Source: a virus
Taxonomy: Duplodnaviria > Caudoviricetes
Virus record (IMG/VR): IMGVR_UViG_3300014697_000001
Location: 64,001-128,000 of that record
DNA length: 64,000 nucleotides
Strand: one strand, 5' to 3'
Below, piece after piece: positions 4,078-55,335 of the stretch. A program made the translations under genes and the position numbers. Position 1 is the stretch's first letter. Every line of letters begins with the position of its first letter. The notes beneath the pieces are model-generated. The model saw nothing but the letters and a program-made list of their open reading frames with translations. It searched no databases and was not told the origin of the DNA.

Positions 4078-4925
4078 ATATGTAGTAGCACTGTGACAGC
4101 ATTTAAGGAATTGAATGTTTCTGACACTCTCGCCATTACTGTCGATGTTTAGACCAGGTGCTCTGTGGCTGGCTCAACGGGTGATGAAGGCCTTACCGCC
4201 CACTTATCACTCGTTGGACCGCGGTCATAGAAGTCCTCGGGTCAAGGCAAGAGACGGTTTCTCGCAGATGGCGCGCACCTCATGCCGTTGGAGCATGGTA
4301 GGGTGGCGACCAGAACGCACCTTGAACTTAACTGACAGGATCTGGGCACTGTCCAAATGCCCCACTAAAAATTCCCTCCAAGGAGGACGATATCGTCACA
4401 CGCGGACCAGTCTTGGTATTGGTCTTCTTACTAGGACACTTGATGGGATATTCCGGCCAGATAACAGCCGGATGGTTTTCCAGTGAGCAACACTTTAGTG
4501 CACCAAACAACTCATTCTATCTCGAGACCCCGGCCATTGTGCTGGTTAAGGCAGTATTACCATACTACCATGAGATTGAACTGTACGTTGGAATTGATCG
4601 CGGTGAAGCTCCAAGTAAAGTAGTAAGTGGGCAGGTATTGAAGACGGCTCGATCTGTCGAATTGCACGGGTACTGTGGGTCCCGTAAGCATTTCTAGGTC
4701 GAGTAGCATAATTGGGCTACCACCACACTCCTCACCGATTAAGTTCGGCCATTGATGATCAGCGGATCATCCAAGTCCTACCACCCGTAGGCACCGGTAG
4801 CAAAGGTTACGGAGAAGACGGCAATGTACACAGCTCAGGTAGCCCCTGAGTGGAACCTGAGCGTTCCTTCAATTGTGGTACACCCGAGCTTCTCCAATAC
4901 TTTCCTTTATTTTTTTGTTTTCTGT
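4078..4925 (+). ncRNA. candidate large structured ncRNA (about 840 nt)
   Basis: No credible CDS; many stems with G-U pairs on + strand (4175-4187/4204-4216, 4754-4760/4765-4771, 4811-4817/4889-4895); TATGT start and T-rich end. Confidence 0.65.
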
Positions 4926-5297: not shown

Positions 5298-5327
5298 TTT
5301 TTTTCAACCATACATGATAGCGATGAA
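5298..5327 (+). promoter_or_regulatory. putative early (virion RNAP) promoter
   Basis: TTTTTTTCAACCATACATGATAGCGATGAA; motif recurs at 9263, 26295, 36986, 54207, 55053, 55342. Confidence 0.65.
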
Positions 5328-12004: not shown

Positions 12005-15000
12005 TTACTTGATTGAACGATCAATCCATTTGATGATGGCTTTAGCTGTGGGGTAGACTTCGATCATTTCGGTGAGGCTGAGCGTCCACATCTCAGGCTC
12101 GCGTTGGTGATAAAAGCGCTCCCAGTAGGCTTCATCGAGTTTCCGATCGGTGACGTACAGCCAGTCATTGAACTCGTTACCATCCTTGAAATCGAGCCAA
12201 GGGATAAATCCAATGGATGGGTCCCATTTCTTATCAGTTAGCATTGCTTTGACAAGCTGAGCTGCTTCTAACACCTGCGTGGCATTTAGTGCAGGGAGTG
12301 TTTCAGCAGCTACTAACTCCGGGACAGTTCGAACAACAGGCGTACCTTTAACAACCTCTACCTTAAGGTTCTTCAGAGACGTTCCTTCGAACTTCGGAAA
12401 GCGCTTCATGGGATCGGGGAGAGCGTCGAACTCGTTAACTGATTTTCGAACGAAATCCAGAATAGACTCGGTGTCTCCGGCGCTCTTCTCCCAGTGCTTC
12501 ACAGTGCGGTTGTGAATTTCCTGGACCTTGTCGTTCAATGGCCCAAGCACACCCATCCATGCCTTGGTGTGACGAGCGACTCTACCGTGAGCCTTTATCA
12601 CATTGCCCAGTGGACTGTCCCCTAACTTACCATCCAACATGAAGTACGTCGAAATATCCTTCGCAGGCACATCCCCTTCAACATATTTCTGCTTGTCAAG
12701 CCAGGTTCGACTCAGATAGGTTTTGTTCATCTCCTCCATGAACCGCTTGAGTTTATTAGCATGTTCGTATCTGAGGTATTCGCTATCGTCGTCCTTGTAC
12801 TTGGGTTTCTTGGGTCTAAGCAAGCCACCTAAGAGATCGGACAACCCTTCAAACGACACGGTGTCCTCGCCACCATCCCTTACGTCGATTGGCAGTTCGA
12901 GTTTCACCCTGTCGATAAATCGCTCAGCATCGCCCAGGGTAGCCGCTGGATTCTCCACCAAAGACTCCAGCGATGCCTCTAGATCATCCGGAGCACTGAC
13001 CCCGAGGATAGCCTCGACTTGAGATTTACTCCATGCCATGATGTCCTTAGAGCGCGTCGAGATGTTCGGCTCTGCACCGGTATCCAGATACGTCTCCCAG
13101 ACATGGCAGCGATGCTTCTGTCCGATTCGGTCAACACGGGCAATGGTCTGCGTCCGTTCGTAATCACGGAACGGGGCATTGGTGAACACAACTGTGTTTG
13201 CCATGGTCAACGGTACAGCTGTCGACAGGGACTTGAAGGTTGCCACCAGAGGATTGATGTCGTCGTCATTCTCAAACCGCTTGACGATGTTCGGCAAGTC
13301 CTTGTTGGTCTCCCCGTACACCAGCAGGGGTTTATACCCCGCCTTCGTCAGCAGGCTCTCAAGCTCCTTGACCACTTCCACGTAACTGGTAAAGATCACC
13401 GTTTTGGTGGTCGCGTTGTCGATGATCTCATCCAAGGGCATGTTGGGTAGCATGTCCAGGTGACACTGGATGCGCAGACGCCCCAATACCTGAGACAACG
13501 CCTCACCCATGACCCTGAGGTCAACGTACTTGATGATGGCACGGACATTCAAGAACGGTTTGCGGTACCGTTCAGGTAGCGAGGGAACAATGGTCTTCAG
13601 CTCGTACCGGTTACAGTACATCACCAGATCCTTCATGGTAACCGGATCATACCCCTTGCGAAGTTGAGCCACGCCACGTCGGTATTCAGAGAACGCTGCG
13701 GAGGCCATTCCGCCCTTTACAGTCTGCCCGTGAAGCTCCATGCAAGTCGCGTAGAGTTTTTCATACTCCGGCATCCCCTTTCGGTAGAAGGCCAAACGCT
13801 CATCGATAAACTTGCTCATCTTCTCGCGGACACTGGTCAGGGTATATTCCGATGAGTTGTTCATCGGTACCTTGATCTCATGGTAATCCACACCCGGAGT
13901 CTCGATGTCAGCTTTCACCACTTTGAAGGAGACAATACCGATTCGGTTAGCCAAGATCTCAATCGCCCGCTTAGCCTCCTTGCCAAATATCTTACGGAAG
14001 GACCCTTGTACTTCAGGAGTGAAGTCATTACAGATCGTCGCCAGCAGGGTGATGGCTTCAGAACCCATGGCCTTGAACGGCGTACCCGATGCATGGATCA
14101 CATCTCGGGCCTTGAGGGTCTGGCAGAGCTGGATCAGCAGGTTGGTCCGGTTGGACTGCTCGTTGAAGTTGTGCGATTCGTCGATCCCTACATAGACCTT
14201 GCCGAAGCTGCCTTTGTTAGCCCCGACGAAGGCCAAGAACTTCTCCAGATAATCGTAATGGACGATGTAGTACTTCTTGCCCAGAGTCAATTCCTCTCCA
14301 CTCAGGCTGTGCCAGTACTCTGGCGTCTGCTTGAAGAGTACCTTGATGGTTTTGACCCAGACGTCAAACACAGAGTTCTTCGGCACAACGAGCACTGAGG
14401 TGTCAGCCCCTAAGCAATGGGCCGTGGCGTATTGCGAGATCGTGTTATGGGTGACAATGAAGTCATCGGTGATGTACAGGTGTTTCGGATGATCCACCCT
14501 GATACATTGCGCCTCTTCCTGACCGACGAGCTTGATTGACTTAACACGTAGTTTGAGCGTTGCAGCATACTGTCCATCGTCTTTACAACGTTCCTGTTTG
14601 CGTTTTAACCTGAACAGTTCGGATGGTTTGGAGTGACGAATGTTGACTTGATATGCAGGGCGGCCATTTCGCGTCTCGCCGTTGTAAGTATAAGTCGGTT
14701 TCCGAACAGCGATCCTGGCGATACCACCCAGACTGCGAACCAGATACTGCACACCTTCCGCCAATTGCTTACTACTGGAGCAAAATGAGACGGTCCCTTG
14801 CTGATCCGAAGTTCCATCGGTGTCCATGAGGCCTTGAAGAAGACTCAGGCGTTGTGTCCGGGAACCCTGGAGATACTCACTAGGAATATGTTTTTCGTGA
14901 GAATACTTACCAAATAATCCAAGTTCTCTAACTATCCGTCTCAGTACATTGTCGCCGCGCTCAACACCCACAATGCTGTAGTCGATTTCAGTTATACGTT

Positions 15001-15946
15001 TGAATTCCACGGTGTCTGGTAAGGCATTACGGACATTCTCCAGTACCTCGGCATCTGGAGTACAAAAGGCAACATGGTATCGAAGACCACCGTCGCCCAA
15101 TAACGCACCCAGCACATACGGGTCAAGTGGGTATTGTACCTCTGTACCTTCATCTGGAGTGATGAGAGGAACGTACAGTCGATTCCCACCGCGAGATTCT
15201 AAAATCTCTTTCATGCGCAACGTCGATCGGACATCCCACTGGCGGGAAACATTACTCTGCCTTCCGTCGTGACATTCCCAGAGATGCTCACCACACGCCC
15301 TGGTTTTCCGCCCATCGACGAACTCAATTTCATAGATGTCTTTTACACCTTGAGGATAAACACCCGACACATTGACGGTCGTACCGTCCGGCGCAATCAC
15401 CTGACTCCCCACGCGCATGTCACCCATAGTGGCCCAACCACCAGGTACCTTGATTTTAGCGTCAAGAGGCTGAGCCTTACCCGATCCTGCTGCCGCGTCC
15501 ATCAACATTCCATTGAGCGAGTATTCAAACGTAGCTCGGTCGTAATGCTGTAAAAAGTTAATTTGATGGGGAAATAATGTGACTGTCAAGTCCTTCAGTG
15601 CCGACATGTTAAGCCTGGAGGTGAAATCACCCAGACCTATGTTGCGCAGCCACGTGCCAGCAATCAACTCATCGCGTACACGCTGTAGCGTCCGCCGACC
15701 CACATACGTCCGACGGGATTGGATCAGTTGATCCAACATGTACAGAACTTCGATGGCGTAGAACTTGGGAAACTTTACGCCACTTCGCGAAATAGCAGTG
15801 AACATGTTGTTGTTCAACTTGCTAGTTTTCCAGTGATTGTATACGTCTTTAGAGAACCTGAGCCCAGGTATTCCATTGACTATAATGTGAGAGCCGGTCT
15901 CCTTCACGGAGATCAACCCTAACAGACGCGAGAAATTGGCGTACAT
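12005..15946 (-). CDS. SF2/SNF2-like helicase of phiKZ-like phages, intein-containing, with C-terminal extension
   Basis: Walker A DAAAGSGK|T split by intein, DESH, SGTP, QTIARVDRIGQ. Confidence 0.9.
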   Translation of the reverse strand: MYANFSRLLGLISVKETGSHIIVNGIPGLRFSKDVYNHWKTSKLNNNMFTAISRSGVKFPKFYAIEVLYMLDQLIQSRRTYVGRRTLQRVRDELIAGTWLRNIGLGDFTSRLNMSALKDLTVTLFPHQINFLQHYDRATFEYSLNGMLMDAAAGSGKAQPLDAKIKVPGGWATMGDMRVGSQVIAPDGTTVNVSGVYPQGVKDIYEIEFVDGRKTRACGEHLWECHDGRQSNVSRQWDVRSTLRMKEILESRGGNRLYVPLITPDEGTEVQYPLDPYVLGALLGDGGLRYHVAFCTPDAEVLENVRNALPDTVEFKRITEIDYSIVGVERGDNVLRRIVRELGLFGKYSHEKHIPSEYLQGSRTQRLSLLQGLMDTDGTSDQQGTVSFCSSSKQLAEGVQYLVRSLGGIARIAVRKPTYTYNGETRNGRPAYQVNIRHSKPSELFRLKRKQERCKDDGQYAATLKLRVKSIKLVGQEEAQCIRVDHPKHLYITDDFIVTHNTISQYATAHCLGADTSVLVVPKNSVFDVWVKTIKVLFKQTPEYWHSLSGEELTLGKKYYIVHYDYLEKFLAFVGANKGSFGKVYVGIDESHNFNEQSNRTNLLIQLCQTLKARDVIHASGTPFKAMGSEAITLLATICNDFTPEVQGSFRKIFGKEAKRAIEILANRIGIVSFKVVKADIETPGVDYHEIKVPMNNSSEYTLTSVREKMSKFIDERLAFYRKGMPEYEKLYATCMELHGQTVKGGMASAAFSEYRRGVAQLRKGYDPVTMKDLVMYCNRYELKTIVPSLPERYRKPFLNVRAIIKYVDLRVMGEALSQVLGRLRIQCHLDMLPNMPLDEIIDNATTKTVIFTSYVEVVKELESLLTKAGYKPLLVYGETNKDLPNIVKRFENDDDINPLVATFKSLSTAVPLTMANTVVFTNAPFRDYERTQTIARVDRIGQKHRCHVWETYLDTGAEPNISTRSKDIMAWSKSQVEAILGVSAPDDLEASLESLVENPAATLGDAERFIDRVKLELPIDVRDGGEDTVSFEGLSDLLGGLLRPKKPKYKDDDSEYLRYEHANKLKRFMEEMNKTYLSRTWLDKQKYVEGDVPAKDISTYFMLDGKLGDSPLGNVIKAHGRVARHTKAWMGVLGPLNDKVQEIHNRTVKHWEKSAGDTESILDFVRKSVNEFDALPDPMKRFPKFEGTSLKNLKVEVVKGTPVVRTVPELVAAETLPALNATQVLEAAQLVKAMLTDKKWDPSIGFIPWLDFKDGNEFNDWLYVTDRKLDEAYWERFYHQREPEMWTLSLTEMIEVYPTAKAIIKWIDRSIK
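14444..15475 (-). mobile_element. class 3 intein (344 aa) with LAGLIDADG homing endonuclease
   Basis: Starts AQPLDAKI, block B CGEHLW, block F AQCIRV, block G FIVTHN followed by Thr; LGALLGDG and LQGLMDTDG motifs. Confidence 0.92.
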
Positions 15947-15995: not shown

Positions 15996-17570
15996 ATGAG
16001 CCACACCGCAAGCAAACCGACTGCAGCCGTCATGCTTAACGAAGCCCAGAACTACCGCACCAGCCTGGAAAGCCTGATGAGTGTAGGGCGTGCCCTGCTC
16101 AGCAGTCCGTCGATGGAAGATGCCTCTGCAACCGCCTTCCAGGTGTTGGCCGAGAATGTTCTTGAGCAAGCAGACCACCAACAGGACCTCGTAGCCGTTG
16201 ACGGTGTTGAAGAACCACAGGTCCGGGTCGAGCTGATCATGCAGGATGTCCTGACCCCTCGTCTGACCGAAGTCGAGCAGATCGAAGACGCTCTGCAAGC
16301 CAAGGCCGATGCAGAAGAACCTGTAGCTTTCCATACCAGCGAACGCGCCACTCACGCCTCGCAGGAAGAACTGATCCTGTCGATGGAGATGTTGGCTATC
16401 CATCGTAACTACATTGGTGCCATTCGCTCGGTCCTATCGATGGAATCCTTCCCGGTAGCGGCCGCCACACCTCTGCTTCAAAGCGTCACCCGCTGCTTTG
16501 GCTCGTATGCTGACAAGCTCGGTGTGTCGATGGAATCGTTGGAACAGACGCAAGTCCTCGGTGAAATGAGCGATGCCGTTGATCGCATCGAACAGTTGGT
16601 CACCAAGGCCCATGAGTCTGTGCTTGAGCAAGCTGAAGCCATTCGTGCAGACGCTCGAGCCGTCGGCAGCGATGAAACGGACAAGCTGGGTGACCTGATC
16701 GAAAAGCATCGCCAGGACAACCCGGTCGGTATCCAGTTCGAGGAAGGCACCTCTGTCAACAGCATCCAGTCGGATGCCGAACCCAAAGACGACGAAGAGC
16801 AAGAAGAAACGCTCGACGAGTCCGAGTCTGACGGTGAACAGGACGGTGCTATGGACGACACTTCCATGACCGATGACGAAATGGAACTCGTCCCGAACGA
16901 GGATGATCAGGAACAAGAGGAAGAAGCACCTCTTGAAGAAGACCCCGATCTCGAAGAGGCGCCTGAAGAAGAGGAAGAAACCGACCTCGACGACGAGCAG
17001 GAAGAAGAACTCCCTGAAGAAGTCGAAGAAGTCGAAGAAGAGGAGCTTCCCGAAGAGGAGGAAGAGCTCCCTGAGGAAGAAGAGGAAGGTGACGACCTCG
17101 ATAACGAAGAGGAAGAAGTAGCCAACGCCGACACGATCGACGAAGACGCTATTGAAACCGAAGTCGAAGAGGAAGAGGAGCCTGAATCCGAAGAGCAGGA
17201 AGAAGAGGAAGAAACTGCTGAAGAAGACGAAGACGACCTTGAAGAGGAGGAGGAAGACGGTGAAACCAATTCAAACGAATCTCTGGTCGAACCCATGGTC
17301 TGGGATGCCGACGCGTACGGCGAACAAGCCGCCGAAGTCCGTGGTATCCACACACAGATCCTTCGCTTCCTTGGCGATCACGGTATGCTCACCCCTGAAG
17401 GTCAGGCTATCGCTGAAAACGACCAAGCGGTCGATTTCGTGTTCTCCACTGACCTGATGACCCCGCATGCTGCTGAAGTATTGGCACGTCATTATCAGAC
17501 GTGGATCGGTGCCTCGCTGCGTGATGGGCAAGCCAATCTTCTCTCACTCGGTATCCTCCTTGGTGTGTAA
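15996..17570 (+). CDS. very acidic putative internal head/scaffold protein
   Basis: Repeated S-L/M-E motifs in N-terminal part, long E/D tract. Confidence 0.8.
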   Translation: MSHTASKPTAAVMLNEAQNYRTSLESLMSVGRALLSSPSMEDASATAFQVLAENVLEQADHQQDLVAVDGVEEPQVRVELIMQDVLTPRLTEVEQIEDALQAKADAEEPVAFHTSERATHASQEELILSMEMLAIHRNYIGAIRSVLSMESFPVAAATPLLQSVTRCFGSYADKLGVSMESLEQTQVLGEMSDAVDRIEQLVTKAHESVLEQAEAIRADARAVGSDETDKLGDLIEKHRQDNPVGIQFEEGTSVNSIQSDAEPKDDEEQEETLDESESDGEQDGAMDDTSMTDDEMELVPNEDDQEQEEEAPLEEDPDLEEAPEEEEETDLDDEQEEELPEEVEEVEEEELPEEEEELPEEEEEGDDLDNEEEEVANADTIDEDAIETEVEEEEEPESEEQEEEEETAEEDEDDLEEEEEDGETNSNESLVEPMVWDADAYGEQAAEVRGIHTQILRFLGDHGMLTPEGQAIAENDQAVDFVFSTDLMTPHAAEVLARHYQTWIGASLRDGQANLLSLGILLGV

Positions 17571-17601
17571 CTGAAATACTTGTACTGTTTTTACGGTATA
17601 G

Positions 17602-18035
17602 TATGTCAGACTATGCATTTAAAGCATGGTCAACCTGATGCGCTTCACTGCGTAGAGCCTGCTGGGGTACTTTTTCCCTAGCCCAGTACCCGACTACCCC
17701 CTTAGTCGTGGTGCACCTTCGTGAGGTGGGACAATCCCACCTCACGTCCCTGTTCGTTGCCCTGAGTGAACTTGTCGTGATAGCTCAGGTGATTGTGGTT
17801 CCGCCTTCCAGGCCAAGGGAAGGTGGTAAACGATGGTGTGTAGAGTGTCGTTGCTCCACATCGCTGCAAGAAACACAGTCGGGGAGTTTTCCGGCTTTCT
17901 CCTTGCCTGTGGTGTCTGGATTGGGGTCCGCTCCTTCTCTGATTCAGACATAAAGTGCAGCCTCCAGTGATCCGTCCTTTCGAACGATTGGGCTGATCAC
18001 TGGGGGAAGTACTTTATTTCTTTTTTTTGTTTTGC
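17602..18035 (+). ncRNA. candidate structured ncRNA (about 430 nt)
   Basis: About ten consecutive stem-loops, G-U pairs on + strand, TATGT start, T-rich end. Confidence 0.7.
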
Positions 18036-18080
18036 TGTGATTTCAAAATAACCCAGGGTAGGGTATGACAATCTTCGGAG

Positions 18081-18452
18081 ATGAGCATGGACGTTTATAC
18101 GATCGCGATACCACAGTGGCGGAAAGCCCGCGACAGAGACATTGAATTATTCGACATCACAGTCAAATCAGGTTTTGAACCCTTCGCCCCCTACAAGGAC
18201 GTCCTGTACGCCTACAAGCGCGGTGAAGTTACAGACGACCAATATACCGAGATCTACCTAAAGAAGCTCACAGAGCGTCTTAGGGCCGTTCCTGAGGACT
18301 TCCAGAGCTTCCTTGAACGTAAGGGACCGATAGCGGTGGCCTGTTACTGTAAAGCCGGTAAGTTCTGTCATCGTCACCTGTTTGTGGACTTCATTCAGGA
18401 AGTAGCAGAGGACAATGGATACACCGTCAGGCTAGGGGGTGAAATACTATGA
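18081..18452 (+). CDS. DUF488-like protein
   Basis: DITVKSG...FAP...YK...Y...CYCKAGKFCHRHL. Confidence 0.75.
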   Translation: MSMDVYTIAIPQWRKARDRDIELFDITVKSGFEPFAPYKDVLYAYKRGEVTDDQYTEIYLKKLTERLRAVPEDFQSFLERKGPIAVACYCKAGKFCHRHLFVDFIQEVAEDNGYTVRLGGEIL

Positions 18453-39932: not shown

Positions 39933-41849
39933 ATGAGCGACTTGATCAACTACGTCTACGACCGCGCCATCGATTACATCGAGAACCGGGCCAGTTCCAA
40001 CAGCCTTCGTCGCGAGTATGCGCGCTACATGTCGGCTCAGAATTACAACAACAGCGAGATGAATCAGCTGGTGGATGTGATTGCCATCGTGGCAGACAAC
40101 GACCTGCGCACCTCGCGTAGCTCGAACGAAGAAGCTATCGTCCGTGACGTGATCGTCGACATCGTCGACAGTCATGTGGGCGCCTTCGGTATGAGTGATC
40201 CGGATTTTGTTGACTCCGCCCCGGATGACATCTACACCGACATGCGTCGTCACGAGGAGAAGTGGAACACCCTACTGGCACGTATCCAGGGCCGCAGTGC
40301 CGGCACCGGTCGTTCCTCGGGTGGCTTTGGTGGTGACCGCCGTAGCGTCTTTGAGCGTGGCGATAACCGTGCCGTGGGCTCGCGTGCAGGTTCGGTGTTT
40401 AGCCGCAACGAACCTCAGCGTGATGTCCGGGGTAGCAACAGCATCTTTTCTCGTCGCCCAACGGTCCCGCAGGCTGAAGAACCGCGTGCTAGCCTGTTTA
40501 ACCGTGACGAGCAACAACCGCGCCGCGCCGGGTTCGGTCAAGCGGCAGCGGGTATTAGTCAAGGGCGCGTCGATGTGGCGCGGACTGACATCCCGACAAC
40601 CGTGCGTCAAGAACCGGTTGCTGAAACTCAGAAGCCTGACGGTCCTGATTTCAATGTAGATCGTCCGTACGATGACTTCTGGGTCAATGGCGAGAACTGG
40701 CAGCTGGCCCACCGTTCCAAGTTCGCCTGGACTTGGTCACCCAAACAACACACCCGCCGTACCTACGATCCCGACCAGGAAGTCTGCTTCCTTGTTAAGG
40801 GCAAGGACGGCTCTGTCCGAGAGGAGTTCCTAGCCGTGACTGGAGACCTGGTCGAGTACGCCCACGAAATCCGCAACATGACCCGCCCCAACCAAGTTCG
40901 TTCTGTGTCTGACCGTGAAAGCGGTGATGACCTGTTCCCCAGCAACGACCTGGATGTGGTTGACCTCGACGCACTGAAGAATGTGGAAGAAGCTGTCCGC
41001 AAGTACGTGCTCGATGACCTGAAACTGAACAGTGTCCACAGCGTGTCTGGCACTGAGGCAGTTTCCAGCTTGGAAGAAGCTGCCCTTCAGGCGGTCGGTG
41101 CTGCGCAAAAGCAGGATGAACACATCACCGTGACATCCAAGTTTGTAGCTGTCCAACTGCCCGCTGACAAGGAGACCATCAAAGCGCTGGATTCCATCAA
41201 GGCGCTGAATGAAAGCGAAGCGGATCTGCTGGTGCTGCAAAAGCGCCTGAAGACACTGCGTGGCAACATCGCTGAAAACGTGATGAACTACCTGGACAAG
41301 CATTACACCGACGAGGTGAACCGTGCAGTCCTGGATCAGTTTGGTCTGTCGGGCCTGAAGATCACCAGCTTTGTTGAGGACTTTGAAGACCTGCTCAATT
41401 GCGGTCGGTTCAAGAAGTTCGGTGCCGGCTATGCAGCACAGTTCCTCAGCCGTACACGCAACCTGCTGCTGAGCCTGACGCCGCTGACCGATGAGGCCAT
41501 GCGTATGGAGTTCATGGAGTGCACGGACACGCTGCCGATCGCTGAAGAAGATCCGGAAGCCTACCGTCAGTTCCGTGAAAATGTCGCGGTGCTGTTCAAG
41601 CCGCTGGGCATGGTCCATGTCAAGGCAAGCTCTGAAGAATTCGGGCTGGTCTCTGAGGAAGTGCGCACCCCCAATAAGAATGGGGCCGGTGCACAACCGC
41701 AGTTGGCTGAAGTTCTGGTGCAGCTGTATGCCACCGCACGCCGTCTGGCTGGCGCAGGGCACATCTACATGATGACCGCTGACAACCTGTGCTTCGAACT
41801 GGTGGCCATCAGTGGTGCCCGTGACATCGTAGGTATCCGTCTGGCTTAA
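39933..41849 (+). CDS. hypothetical protein with R/G/S-rich disordered linker
   Basis: 638 aa, GGAG RBS, followed by UUCG hairpin 41866-41897. Confidence 0.85.
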   Translation: MSDLINYVYDRAIDYIENRASSNSLRREYARYMSAQNYNNSEMNQLVDVIAIVADNDLRTSRSSNEEAIVRDVIVDIVDSHVGAFGMSDPDFVDSAPDDIYTDMRRHEEKWNTLLARIQGRSAGTGRSSGGFGGDRRSVFERGDNRAVGSRAGSVFSRNEPQRDVRGSNSIFSRRPTVPQAEEPRASLFNRDEQQPRRAGFGQAAAGISQGRVDVARTDIPTTVRQEPVAETQKPDGPDFNVDRPYDDFWVNGENWQLAHRSKFAWTWSPKQHTRRTYDPDQEVCFLVKGKDGSVREEFLAVTGDLVEYAHEIRNMTRPNQVRSVSDRESGDDLFPSNDLDVVDLDALKNVEEAVRKYVLDDLKLNSVHSVSGTEAVSSLEEAALQAVGAAQKQDEHITVTSKFVAVQLPADKETIKALDSIKALNESEADLLVLQKRLKTLRGNIAENVMNYLDKHYTDEVNRAVLDQFGLSGLKITSFVEDFEDLLNCGRFKKFGAGYAAQFLSRTRNLLLSLTPLTDEAMRMEFMECTDTLPIAEEDPEAYRQFRENVAVLFKPLGMVHVKASSEEFGLVSEEVRTPNKNGAGAQPQLAEVLVQLYATARRLAGAGHIYMMTADNLCFELVAISGARDIVGIRLA

Positions 41850-55162: not shown

Positions 55163-55335
55163 AGTATGTTATAGGGAGGATAGGTGCCACAGTGCCTCCG
55201 GGGTAGGATCAGGCGAGCGATCGGCAATGGCCATCGCCCCTGACTACCCACTATGCCGTCTCACCGAAATTCCGATAGATCAGTCGTTAGGCCTGTGCCT
55301 GATAAACTGATCTATCATCCCTTTATTTTTTTGAT
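55163..55335 (+). ncRNA. candidate small structured RNA (about 170 nt)
   Basis: Three stem-loops, TATGT start, CTTTATTTTTTTG end. Confidence 0.55.

Follow-up and report, generated by a model that had tools for sequence, protein, structure and literature searches.

The window, i.e. the whole stretch of 64,000 nucleotides that was analysed, covers positions 64001-128000 of an IMG/VR virus record with a length of 250.5 kb and stems from a phiKZ-related jumbo phage. Among cultured phages, Pseudomonas phage pPa_SNUABM_DT01 is the closest to it (64% identity of the DUF488 proteins). Relatives of the multisubunit RNA polymerase beta and beta' subunits are encoded by the phage; pPa_SNUABM_DT01 possesses virion and non-virion RNA polymerases, as in phiKZ (PMC8541153). 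A gap of 510 nt between an ORF of 524 codons (15996-17570, + strand) and one of 123 codons (18081-18452, + strand) holds the RNA gene described here (17597-18028, + strand; approximately 425 nt). The product of the downstream ORF is a PHIKZ151-family DUF488 protein, and genes of virion structural proteins (PHIKZ083 family) follow this ORF on its 3' side. Translation of the DUF488 gene probably starts at the second ATG (18087), as the GGAG motif abuts the first one and the homologues align from residue 2-3. The upstream protein (524 residues) is extremely acidic, contains several S-x-E sites and had no match in Pfam or PHROG; its gene is always present immediately 5' of the RNA, and the product may be a head-internal protein that is cleaved by the prohead protease. 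Farther upstream, a divergently oriented helicase gene (12005-15946, - strand; 1313 residues) carries a LAGLIDADG homing-endonuclease/intein insertion.

A DNA similarity search of the RNA region against 50,697 phage records gave no match, although pPa_SNUABM_DT01 contains a homologue; the sequence identity outside short blocks is too low, and homologues were therefore sought by synteny and pattern scans. A DUF488 protein search of viral contigs yielded seven loci of the same gene order with a gap of 480-560 nt, and local BLAST revealed conserved blocks inside the gaps of the DUF488-linked loci. Pattern scans of viral and metagenome collections with the best-conserved block supplied further members, from which near-duplicates were removed. 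The resulting non-redundant set consists of 14 sequences (the window and 13 further homologues), all at the same genomic position, with pairwise identities between lineages of 53-80% in the variable parts; among them is the locus of the cultured P. aeruginosa phage pPa_SNUABM_DT01 (gap of 513 nt, no annotation there). With a covariance model built from the junction/P7 part (see Table 1 for the elements), every family member searched scored 106-137 bits, and exactly one copy was found in the genome of the window and one in pPa_SNUABM_DT01. The same model detected nothing convincing (E > 0.08) when applied to five contigs of more distant DUF488-bearing phages or to Noxifer, phiKZ, 201phi2-1, PA1C and Wellington. 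In PA1C and Wellington, only about 50 nt are present upstream of the DUF488 gene, and the corresponding gaps of the contigs L009 and L014 are weakly structured (z of -2.4 and -1.1, respectively). Since the element is missing from the more distant DUF488 phages, the RNA is regarded as the invention of one clade and not as a general DUF488 leader. The RNA is very probably real and conserved and, judged by sequence comparison, represents a new RNA family restricted to jumbo phages related to pPa_SNUABM_DT01.

Table 1. Elements of the RNA and of its flanks in the window (RNA position 1 corresponds to window position 17597).
Element	Position in the window	Strand	Observation
Promoter-like start motif, 11 nt, TATAG and TATG	17596..17606	+	10 nt invariant in 13 of 14 sequences
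P1 hairpin, 8 bp	17609-17616/17624-17631	+	different small hairpin in relatives; comparatively weakest helix
P2, invariant 5-bp stem with conserved 6-nt loop	17639..17654	+	loop predicted unpaired (0.87-1.0)
P3 variable hairpin	17661..17682	+	in the own fold of every homologue, with different sequence
P4 two-part hairpin with C-rich apical loop	17686..17714	+	run of four to five C in 12 of 14 homologues
P5 strong hairpin, perfect 12 bp in the window	17720-17731/17735-17746	+	compensatory changes in 4 pairs
Three-way junction domain	17754..17833	+	closing helix P6 and arms P6a, P6b
P6 closing helix, 5 bp	17754-17758/17829-17833	+	invariant
P6a	17761-17767/17783-17789	+	both-side changes in 6 of 7 pairs; 100% of cells paired
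P6a loop, 15-16 nt	17768-17782	+	invariant
P6b	17801-17809/17818-17826	+	both-side changes in 5 of 6 pairs; 100% of cells paired
P7 hairpin with conserved internal UGCUCC element	17835..17862	+	outer helix: both-side changes in 5 of 7 pairs
GCUGC linker, conserved	17863..17867	+	complementary to GCAGC 17957-17961 at the foot of P10
P8 hairpin, 11-15 bp	17874..17911	+	same hairpin in 14 of 14, stems differ
P8 apical loop	17887-17898	+	near-invariant CCGGCU with self-complementary CCGG core
P9 hairpin, 10-16 bp	17912-17926/17937-17951	+	forms in 14 of 14 separate folds
P9 apical loop	17927-17936	+	invariant CUCCU at 17931-17935; similar to the 16S anti-Shine-Dalgarno core
P10 long terminal stem-loop, terminator hairpin	17953..18014; stem includes 17961-17972/17995-18006	+	both-side changes in 10 of 24 pairs
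U-rich tail, TTTATTT followed by eight T	18013..18028	+	probable 3' end
TATG/TATAG-type motif (18064-18067), GGAG (18077-18080), probable start codon (18087)	18060..18089	+	conserved between terminator and RBS

The description of the region in the earlier note as a non-coding RNA formed by a chain of hairpins was borne out by the predicted fold and by the helices, which are kept through compensatory changes in the 13 further homologues, this comparison being decisive. The + strand folds at -218 kcal/mol; dinucleotide shuffles give -158.9 +/- 6.0 kcal/mol, corresponding to z = -9.8. On the - strand, z is only -3.3, and the G-U pairs thus mark the + strand as the RNA. When 24 long non-coding gaps in this genome were compared, the gap of the RNA ranked top in fold stability per base and in strand asymmetry. 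Direct repeats of at least 14 nt were absent from 17400-18200, and repeat-based RNA classes (type III antitoxin arrays, CRISPR-like arrays, RNA anti-CRISPRs) are consequently not fitted.

Ten helices are common to all 14 sequences (five 5' hairpins, the three-way junction, three further hairpins and the terminator stem; see Table 1), while the invariant nucleotides cluster in loops and junctions. In the core formed by the junction and P7, 99% of 404 cells were standard-paired and both-side changes were present in 16 of 29 pairs; the covariation score was reached by none of 500 shuffles, and sliding the partners by 1-3 columns as a control lowered the core pairing to 28-61%. The P2 stem shows no variation and is therefore uninformative in terms of covariation. 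P3 to P5 recurred in the separate folds of homologues that differ in sequence; the P5 stem sequence is lineage-dependent, with UUCG tetraloops in several lineages, and a loop motif of P6b is missing from the window sequence and its twin. P8 and P9 were judged from the separate folds of the 14 sequences; the MAFFT alignments (whole-length and part-C) misplaced the P8 of the window. Nearly all stems listed in the earlier note were found at their proposed positions, and all of these but one recurred in the minimum-free-energy fold; its GGGTACT/AGTACCC stem, however, competes with the P3/P4 arrangement favored by the homologues. The CTGCA/TGCAG helix, proposed there to close a junction with two arms, is complementary in 12 of the 14 sequences but overlaps the base of P10, for which the covariation is better. 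In this helix, which corresponds to the GCUGC linker and its GCAGC counterpart, pairing was complete in these 12 sequences, with one compensatory double change and two single mismatches, one change being wobble-compatible; it may act as an intermediate of folding or represent an alternative state, a short pseudoknot, or a junction-closing or transient helix. A competition between GUGAU of the P6a loop and the 5' strand of the terminator was considered and rejected, as the terminator arm covaries and the loop never changes; pairing of the C-rich P4 loop with the invariant G-run of P10 was not supported, as the homologues L016 and L032 keep the G-run without having the C-run.

Conservation sets in abruptly at the start motif (17596-17606). 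TATG is present at 17602-17605 in 13 of the 14 sequences; the exception, L016, has TGTG instead, which renders the start-site rule uncertain. The late promoters of phiKZ are defined by T(-3)ATG(+1) alone, all four bases being needed (PMC7598289). From the motif, G17601 or G17605 is the probable first nucleotide of the transcript. The early-type consensus of the phage is absent from the start of the RNA, and no sigma-70-like site was found there; with its TATG start and without the early consensus, the RNA fits a phiKZ-type late unit. The assignment as a "late" RNA in the earlier note is plausible on these grounds, with the start position being deduced from the motif. The early-type consensus itself extends over about 40 nt and has TACATGATAG at its end; about 14 copies are present on the + strand, e.g. 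at window positions 5311, 9277, 54224 and 55354, and it precedes the gene start by 43-46 nt in the five cases where crude gene calls place one. GTATAG was rejected as a general promoter word (47 sites genome-wide versus approximately 100 expected, the latter being an estimate from base composition).

At the 3' end, the covarying P10 stem, the TTTATTT tail and the T-run fit a terminator of the phiKZ type, in which a stem precedes a TTAT-type tail (PMC10914365), and they also resemble the terminators of the phage itself. A simple terminator scanner did not flag P10, which is tentatively attributed to the loop-size limit of the program and the long branched top of the hairpin. The ordinary terminators of the phage are composed of a G+C-rich hairpin and a CTCTATGCCGT-type tail (e.g. 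window 129/146, 9223/9242, 52470/52489) and are often arranged as back-to-back bidirectional pairs; the TATG in their tail may have a second role as a restart site. From both ends of the conserved region, we infer that the RNA is an independent gene with its own start and terminator. Correspondingly, the conserved motif between the terminator and the RBS of the DUF488 gene indicates that the latter probably has its own start. Two RNA-labelled public runs (X19 and X8) contain contigs identical to 17735-17902 and 17742-18122 of the window; their coverage is low and DNA carry-over is possible, and they were therefore given no weight as a sign of transcription.

The window gave no match to Rfam 15 at gathering thresholds, the families covered including RNAIII, 6S, RNase P, tmRNA, SRP, riboswitches, ribozymes, GOLLD, ROOL and OLE. 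At E values up to 10, only chance-level microRNA/snoRNA matches were obtained for 17400-18200, and only chance-level matches for the RNA region of four homologous loci. No tRNA or tmRNA was detected in the window by ARAGORN, no RNA like the one of the window is described in the literature searched, and the DUF488 literature searched provided no functional lead.

The CTCCTT-displaying loop, to which the earlier note had ascribed a possible silencing of strong-RBS mRNAs, is real and constitutes part of the P9 apical loop (17931-17936); its conservation is confirmed insofar as the CUCCU core is invariant in all 14 sequences and apical in every fold, with the stem beneath varying freely. A second copy of CTCCTT (17900-17905) is paired as part of the 3' strand of P8. 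CUCCU was predicted to be unpaired with a probability of at least 0.92 in nine of the 14 homologues and of 0.67 in a further one; for the four members of the L006 group (L006, L007, L008, L034), the value was about 0.2. In these four, CUCCU can pair with the neighboring GGAGUG in the 3' arm of P9 to give an alternative hairpin, which may, according to the fold predictions, act as a built-in mask of the loop. A C/U-rich, Shine-Dalgarno-complementary motif is thus found in the conserved apical loops of P9 (14 of 14) and P4 (C4-5; 12 of 14), an arrangement by which regulators of the RNAIII type are defined, and the phage offers many sites for it: GGAG is located 4-10 nt before the start codon at 148 candidate gene starts (ORFs of at least 60 codons), including 28 cases of AAGGAG. 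On this sequence evidence, anti-Shine-Dalgarno silencing is possible. A protein sponge, which the earlier note offered as an alternative, conflicts with none of the results and may likewise be considered. That the RNA is a regulator resembling RNAIII, in which the CUCCU and P4 loops would block the Shine-Dalgarno sequences of strong-RBS mRNAs late and the remainder would merely provide stability, is nevertheless considered rather unlikely, albeit a serious alternative. Pairing would depend on a core of 5-6 nt only, and no above-chance complementarity exists anywhere in the phage genome: the conserved loops gave 9-12-nt chance-level matches only, none of them at a ribosome-binding site. Where the window has CUCCUU, most relatives have CUCCUC, yet no shift in RBS preference goes along with this lineage difference, AAGGAG being favored throughout. 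Since the own genes of the phage use the same GGAG-type sites, the selectivity of such silencing would be unexplained, as would be the remaining invariant loops and the junction; furthermore, masking of the loop in cis is possible in the four L006-group homologues.

Another reading is an RNA that works by itself, i.e. a ribozyme or a CCGG-held multimer in the manner of the ROOL/GOLLD cages or the phi29 pRNA ring. The size of the RNA, its dense invariant junction and loop nucleotides, its three-way junction, the CCGG core that is self-complementary in 14 of 14 sequences, and the phage-encoded nature that it shares with GOLLD and ROOL (10.1101/2024.12.08.627333) are consistent with such a machine; the idea is, however, quite improbable, as there was no similarity to any Rfam ribozyme or large-RNA family at E values up to 10, conservation extends over the entire CCGGCU and, thus, beyond the palindrome, and no junction for cleavage or ligation can be pointed out. 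The constant position immediately upstream of the co-oriented DUF488 gene, with the terminator ending 50-60 nt before its start codon, could also be explained by a cis-acting leader or attenuator that controls read-through of the P10 terminator. This is held to be highly improbable: besides the TATG/TATAG-type motif that points to a separate start of the DUF488 gene, no conserved antiterminator was found (a single candidate alternative pairing lacked covariation), the element is absent at the more distant DUF488 genes of PA1C, Wellington, L009 and L014, and 425 nt would be very long for a leader. It is hardly credible that the region contains no functional RNA at all, being protein-coding or merely a G+C-rich spacer. 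Mechanical ORFs of up to 81 codons are present in the RNA region of the window, but none is conserved: the longest ORFs vary in position and length across all homologues, even in the 98%-identical twin, and the indels among homologues are not multiples of three. The strong covariation and clear strand asymmetry argue against this as well.

RNAs with a defined three-dimensional fold and macromolecular partners typically combine conserved helices of free sequence with loops and junctions that do not vary. As the helices of the present RNA are free in sequence and its loops and junctions invariant, the reading as a trans-acting scaffold or RNP-type RNA, with the CUCCU loop as one of several contact sites, is tentatively favored over the others. 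The three-way junction together with the 16-nt, P2 and CCGG loops makes up most of the conservation, which a simple anti-Shine-Dalgarno regulator would leave unaccounted for. In the proposed mechanism, the RNA would be transcribed by the non-virion RNA polymerase of the phage from the TATG-type (middle/late) start, the transcript would end at the P10 hairpin and the U-tract, and the product would act in trans as a compactly folded molecule rather than as a plain antisense RNA. One or several protein partners would dock, or tertiary/quaternary RNA-RNA contacts form, at the junction with its 16-nt loop and at the loops of P2 and P8 (CCGG), and the rigid CUCCU loop of P9 would, with the C-rich P4 loop, contact G-rich sequences of the Shine-Dalgarno type or a factor specific for the 3' tail of the 16S rRNA. 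The computed data do not separate this scaffold or RNP from a base-pairing regulator, and the invariant loops lie beyond the reach of covariation. A more specific variant, which is decidedly unlikely, is that a late, rigid RNA (probably an RNP) presents a copy of the anti-Shine-Dalgarno tail as a decoy that captures Shine-Dalgarno-bearing mRNAs or titrates a factor or defence nuclease recognizing the 16S 3' end; the CCGG loop might additionally join copies of this decoy RNA into a multimer. If true, this would imply a global reprogramming of translation in the infected cell.

Two more non-coding cassettes on the + strand of the window (4078-4925 and 55163-55335) have a TATGT-type start and end in a stem, CTTTATTT and a T-run. 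The first 24 nt of the former recur in pPa_SNUABM_DT01 (at about 249,881; 96% identity), and part of the latter recurs at 41,423-41,475 of the same phage; both cassettes possibly represent additional conserved RNAs of this clade. As start and stop signals are shared by at least three cassettes, the clade may possess a small group of late non-coding RNAs; if true, this would add a level of control, so far unexplored, to phages in which transcription (in the phage nucleus) is separated from translation. For phiKZ-type jumbo phages, the literature searched contains few small, poorly characterised RNAs (PMC8244752, PMC11512511, PMC13282480). The host phage pPa_SNUABM_DT01 is cultured and engineerable, and the RNA is thus open to direct experiment.

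The comparison with known systems concerned regulatory as well as structural RNAs. Like Staphylococcus aureus RNAIII and further sRNAs whose loops are C-rich (UCCC), the phage RNA is a long serial-hairpin RNA with a terminator end and Shine-Dalgarno-complementary C/U-rich apical loops; however, it shows no sequence or model similarity to RNAIII, has no embedded peptide gene and comes from a phage with Gram-negative hosts, most of its conserved elements are not C-rich loops, and its target pairing is putative. The transcriptomes of phiKZ and 201phi2-1 comprise only sRNAs of less than 250 nt at other loci (PMC8244752, PMC11512511, PMC10914365), such as sRNA005 and the sRNA upstream of gp182, which are located upstream of a tail gene in phiKZ and 201phi2-1 (PMC11512511, PMC10914365), and a review of 2026 states that phiKZ expresses non-coding RNAs and nothing further (PMC13282480). 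These sRNAs are likewise jumbo-phage non-coding transcripts between phage start sites and intrinsic terminators (in the present case as deduced from sequence), but the RNA described here is flanked by genes of the PHIKZ151 and PHIKZ083 families, and its model is unmatched in those phages. With the phi29 pRNA, it shares the phage-encoded nature, a three-way junction and loops able to mediate intermolecular contacts; it differs by the lack of similarity, by its length (approximately 425 nt versus 174 nt) and by a self-complementary CCGG instead of a complementary loop pair, and nothing ties it to DNA packaging. Compared with GOLLD, ROOL, OLE and raiA, the RNA is smaller (approximately 425 nt), matches none of their Rfam models, does not reside beside tRNA genes (none being present in the window) and is restricted to one phiKZ-related clade. 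Nevertheless, it is similar to these RNAs in being large, multi-domain and covariation-supported with conserved loops and junctions, several of them being phage-associated as well: though absent from Rfam and GenBank annotation, it rivals the classic "ornate" RNAs in size and covariation.
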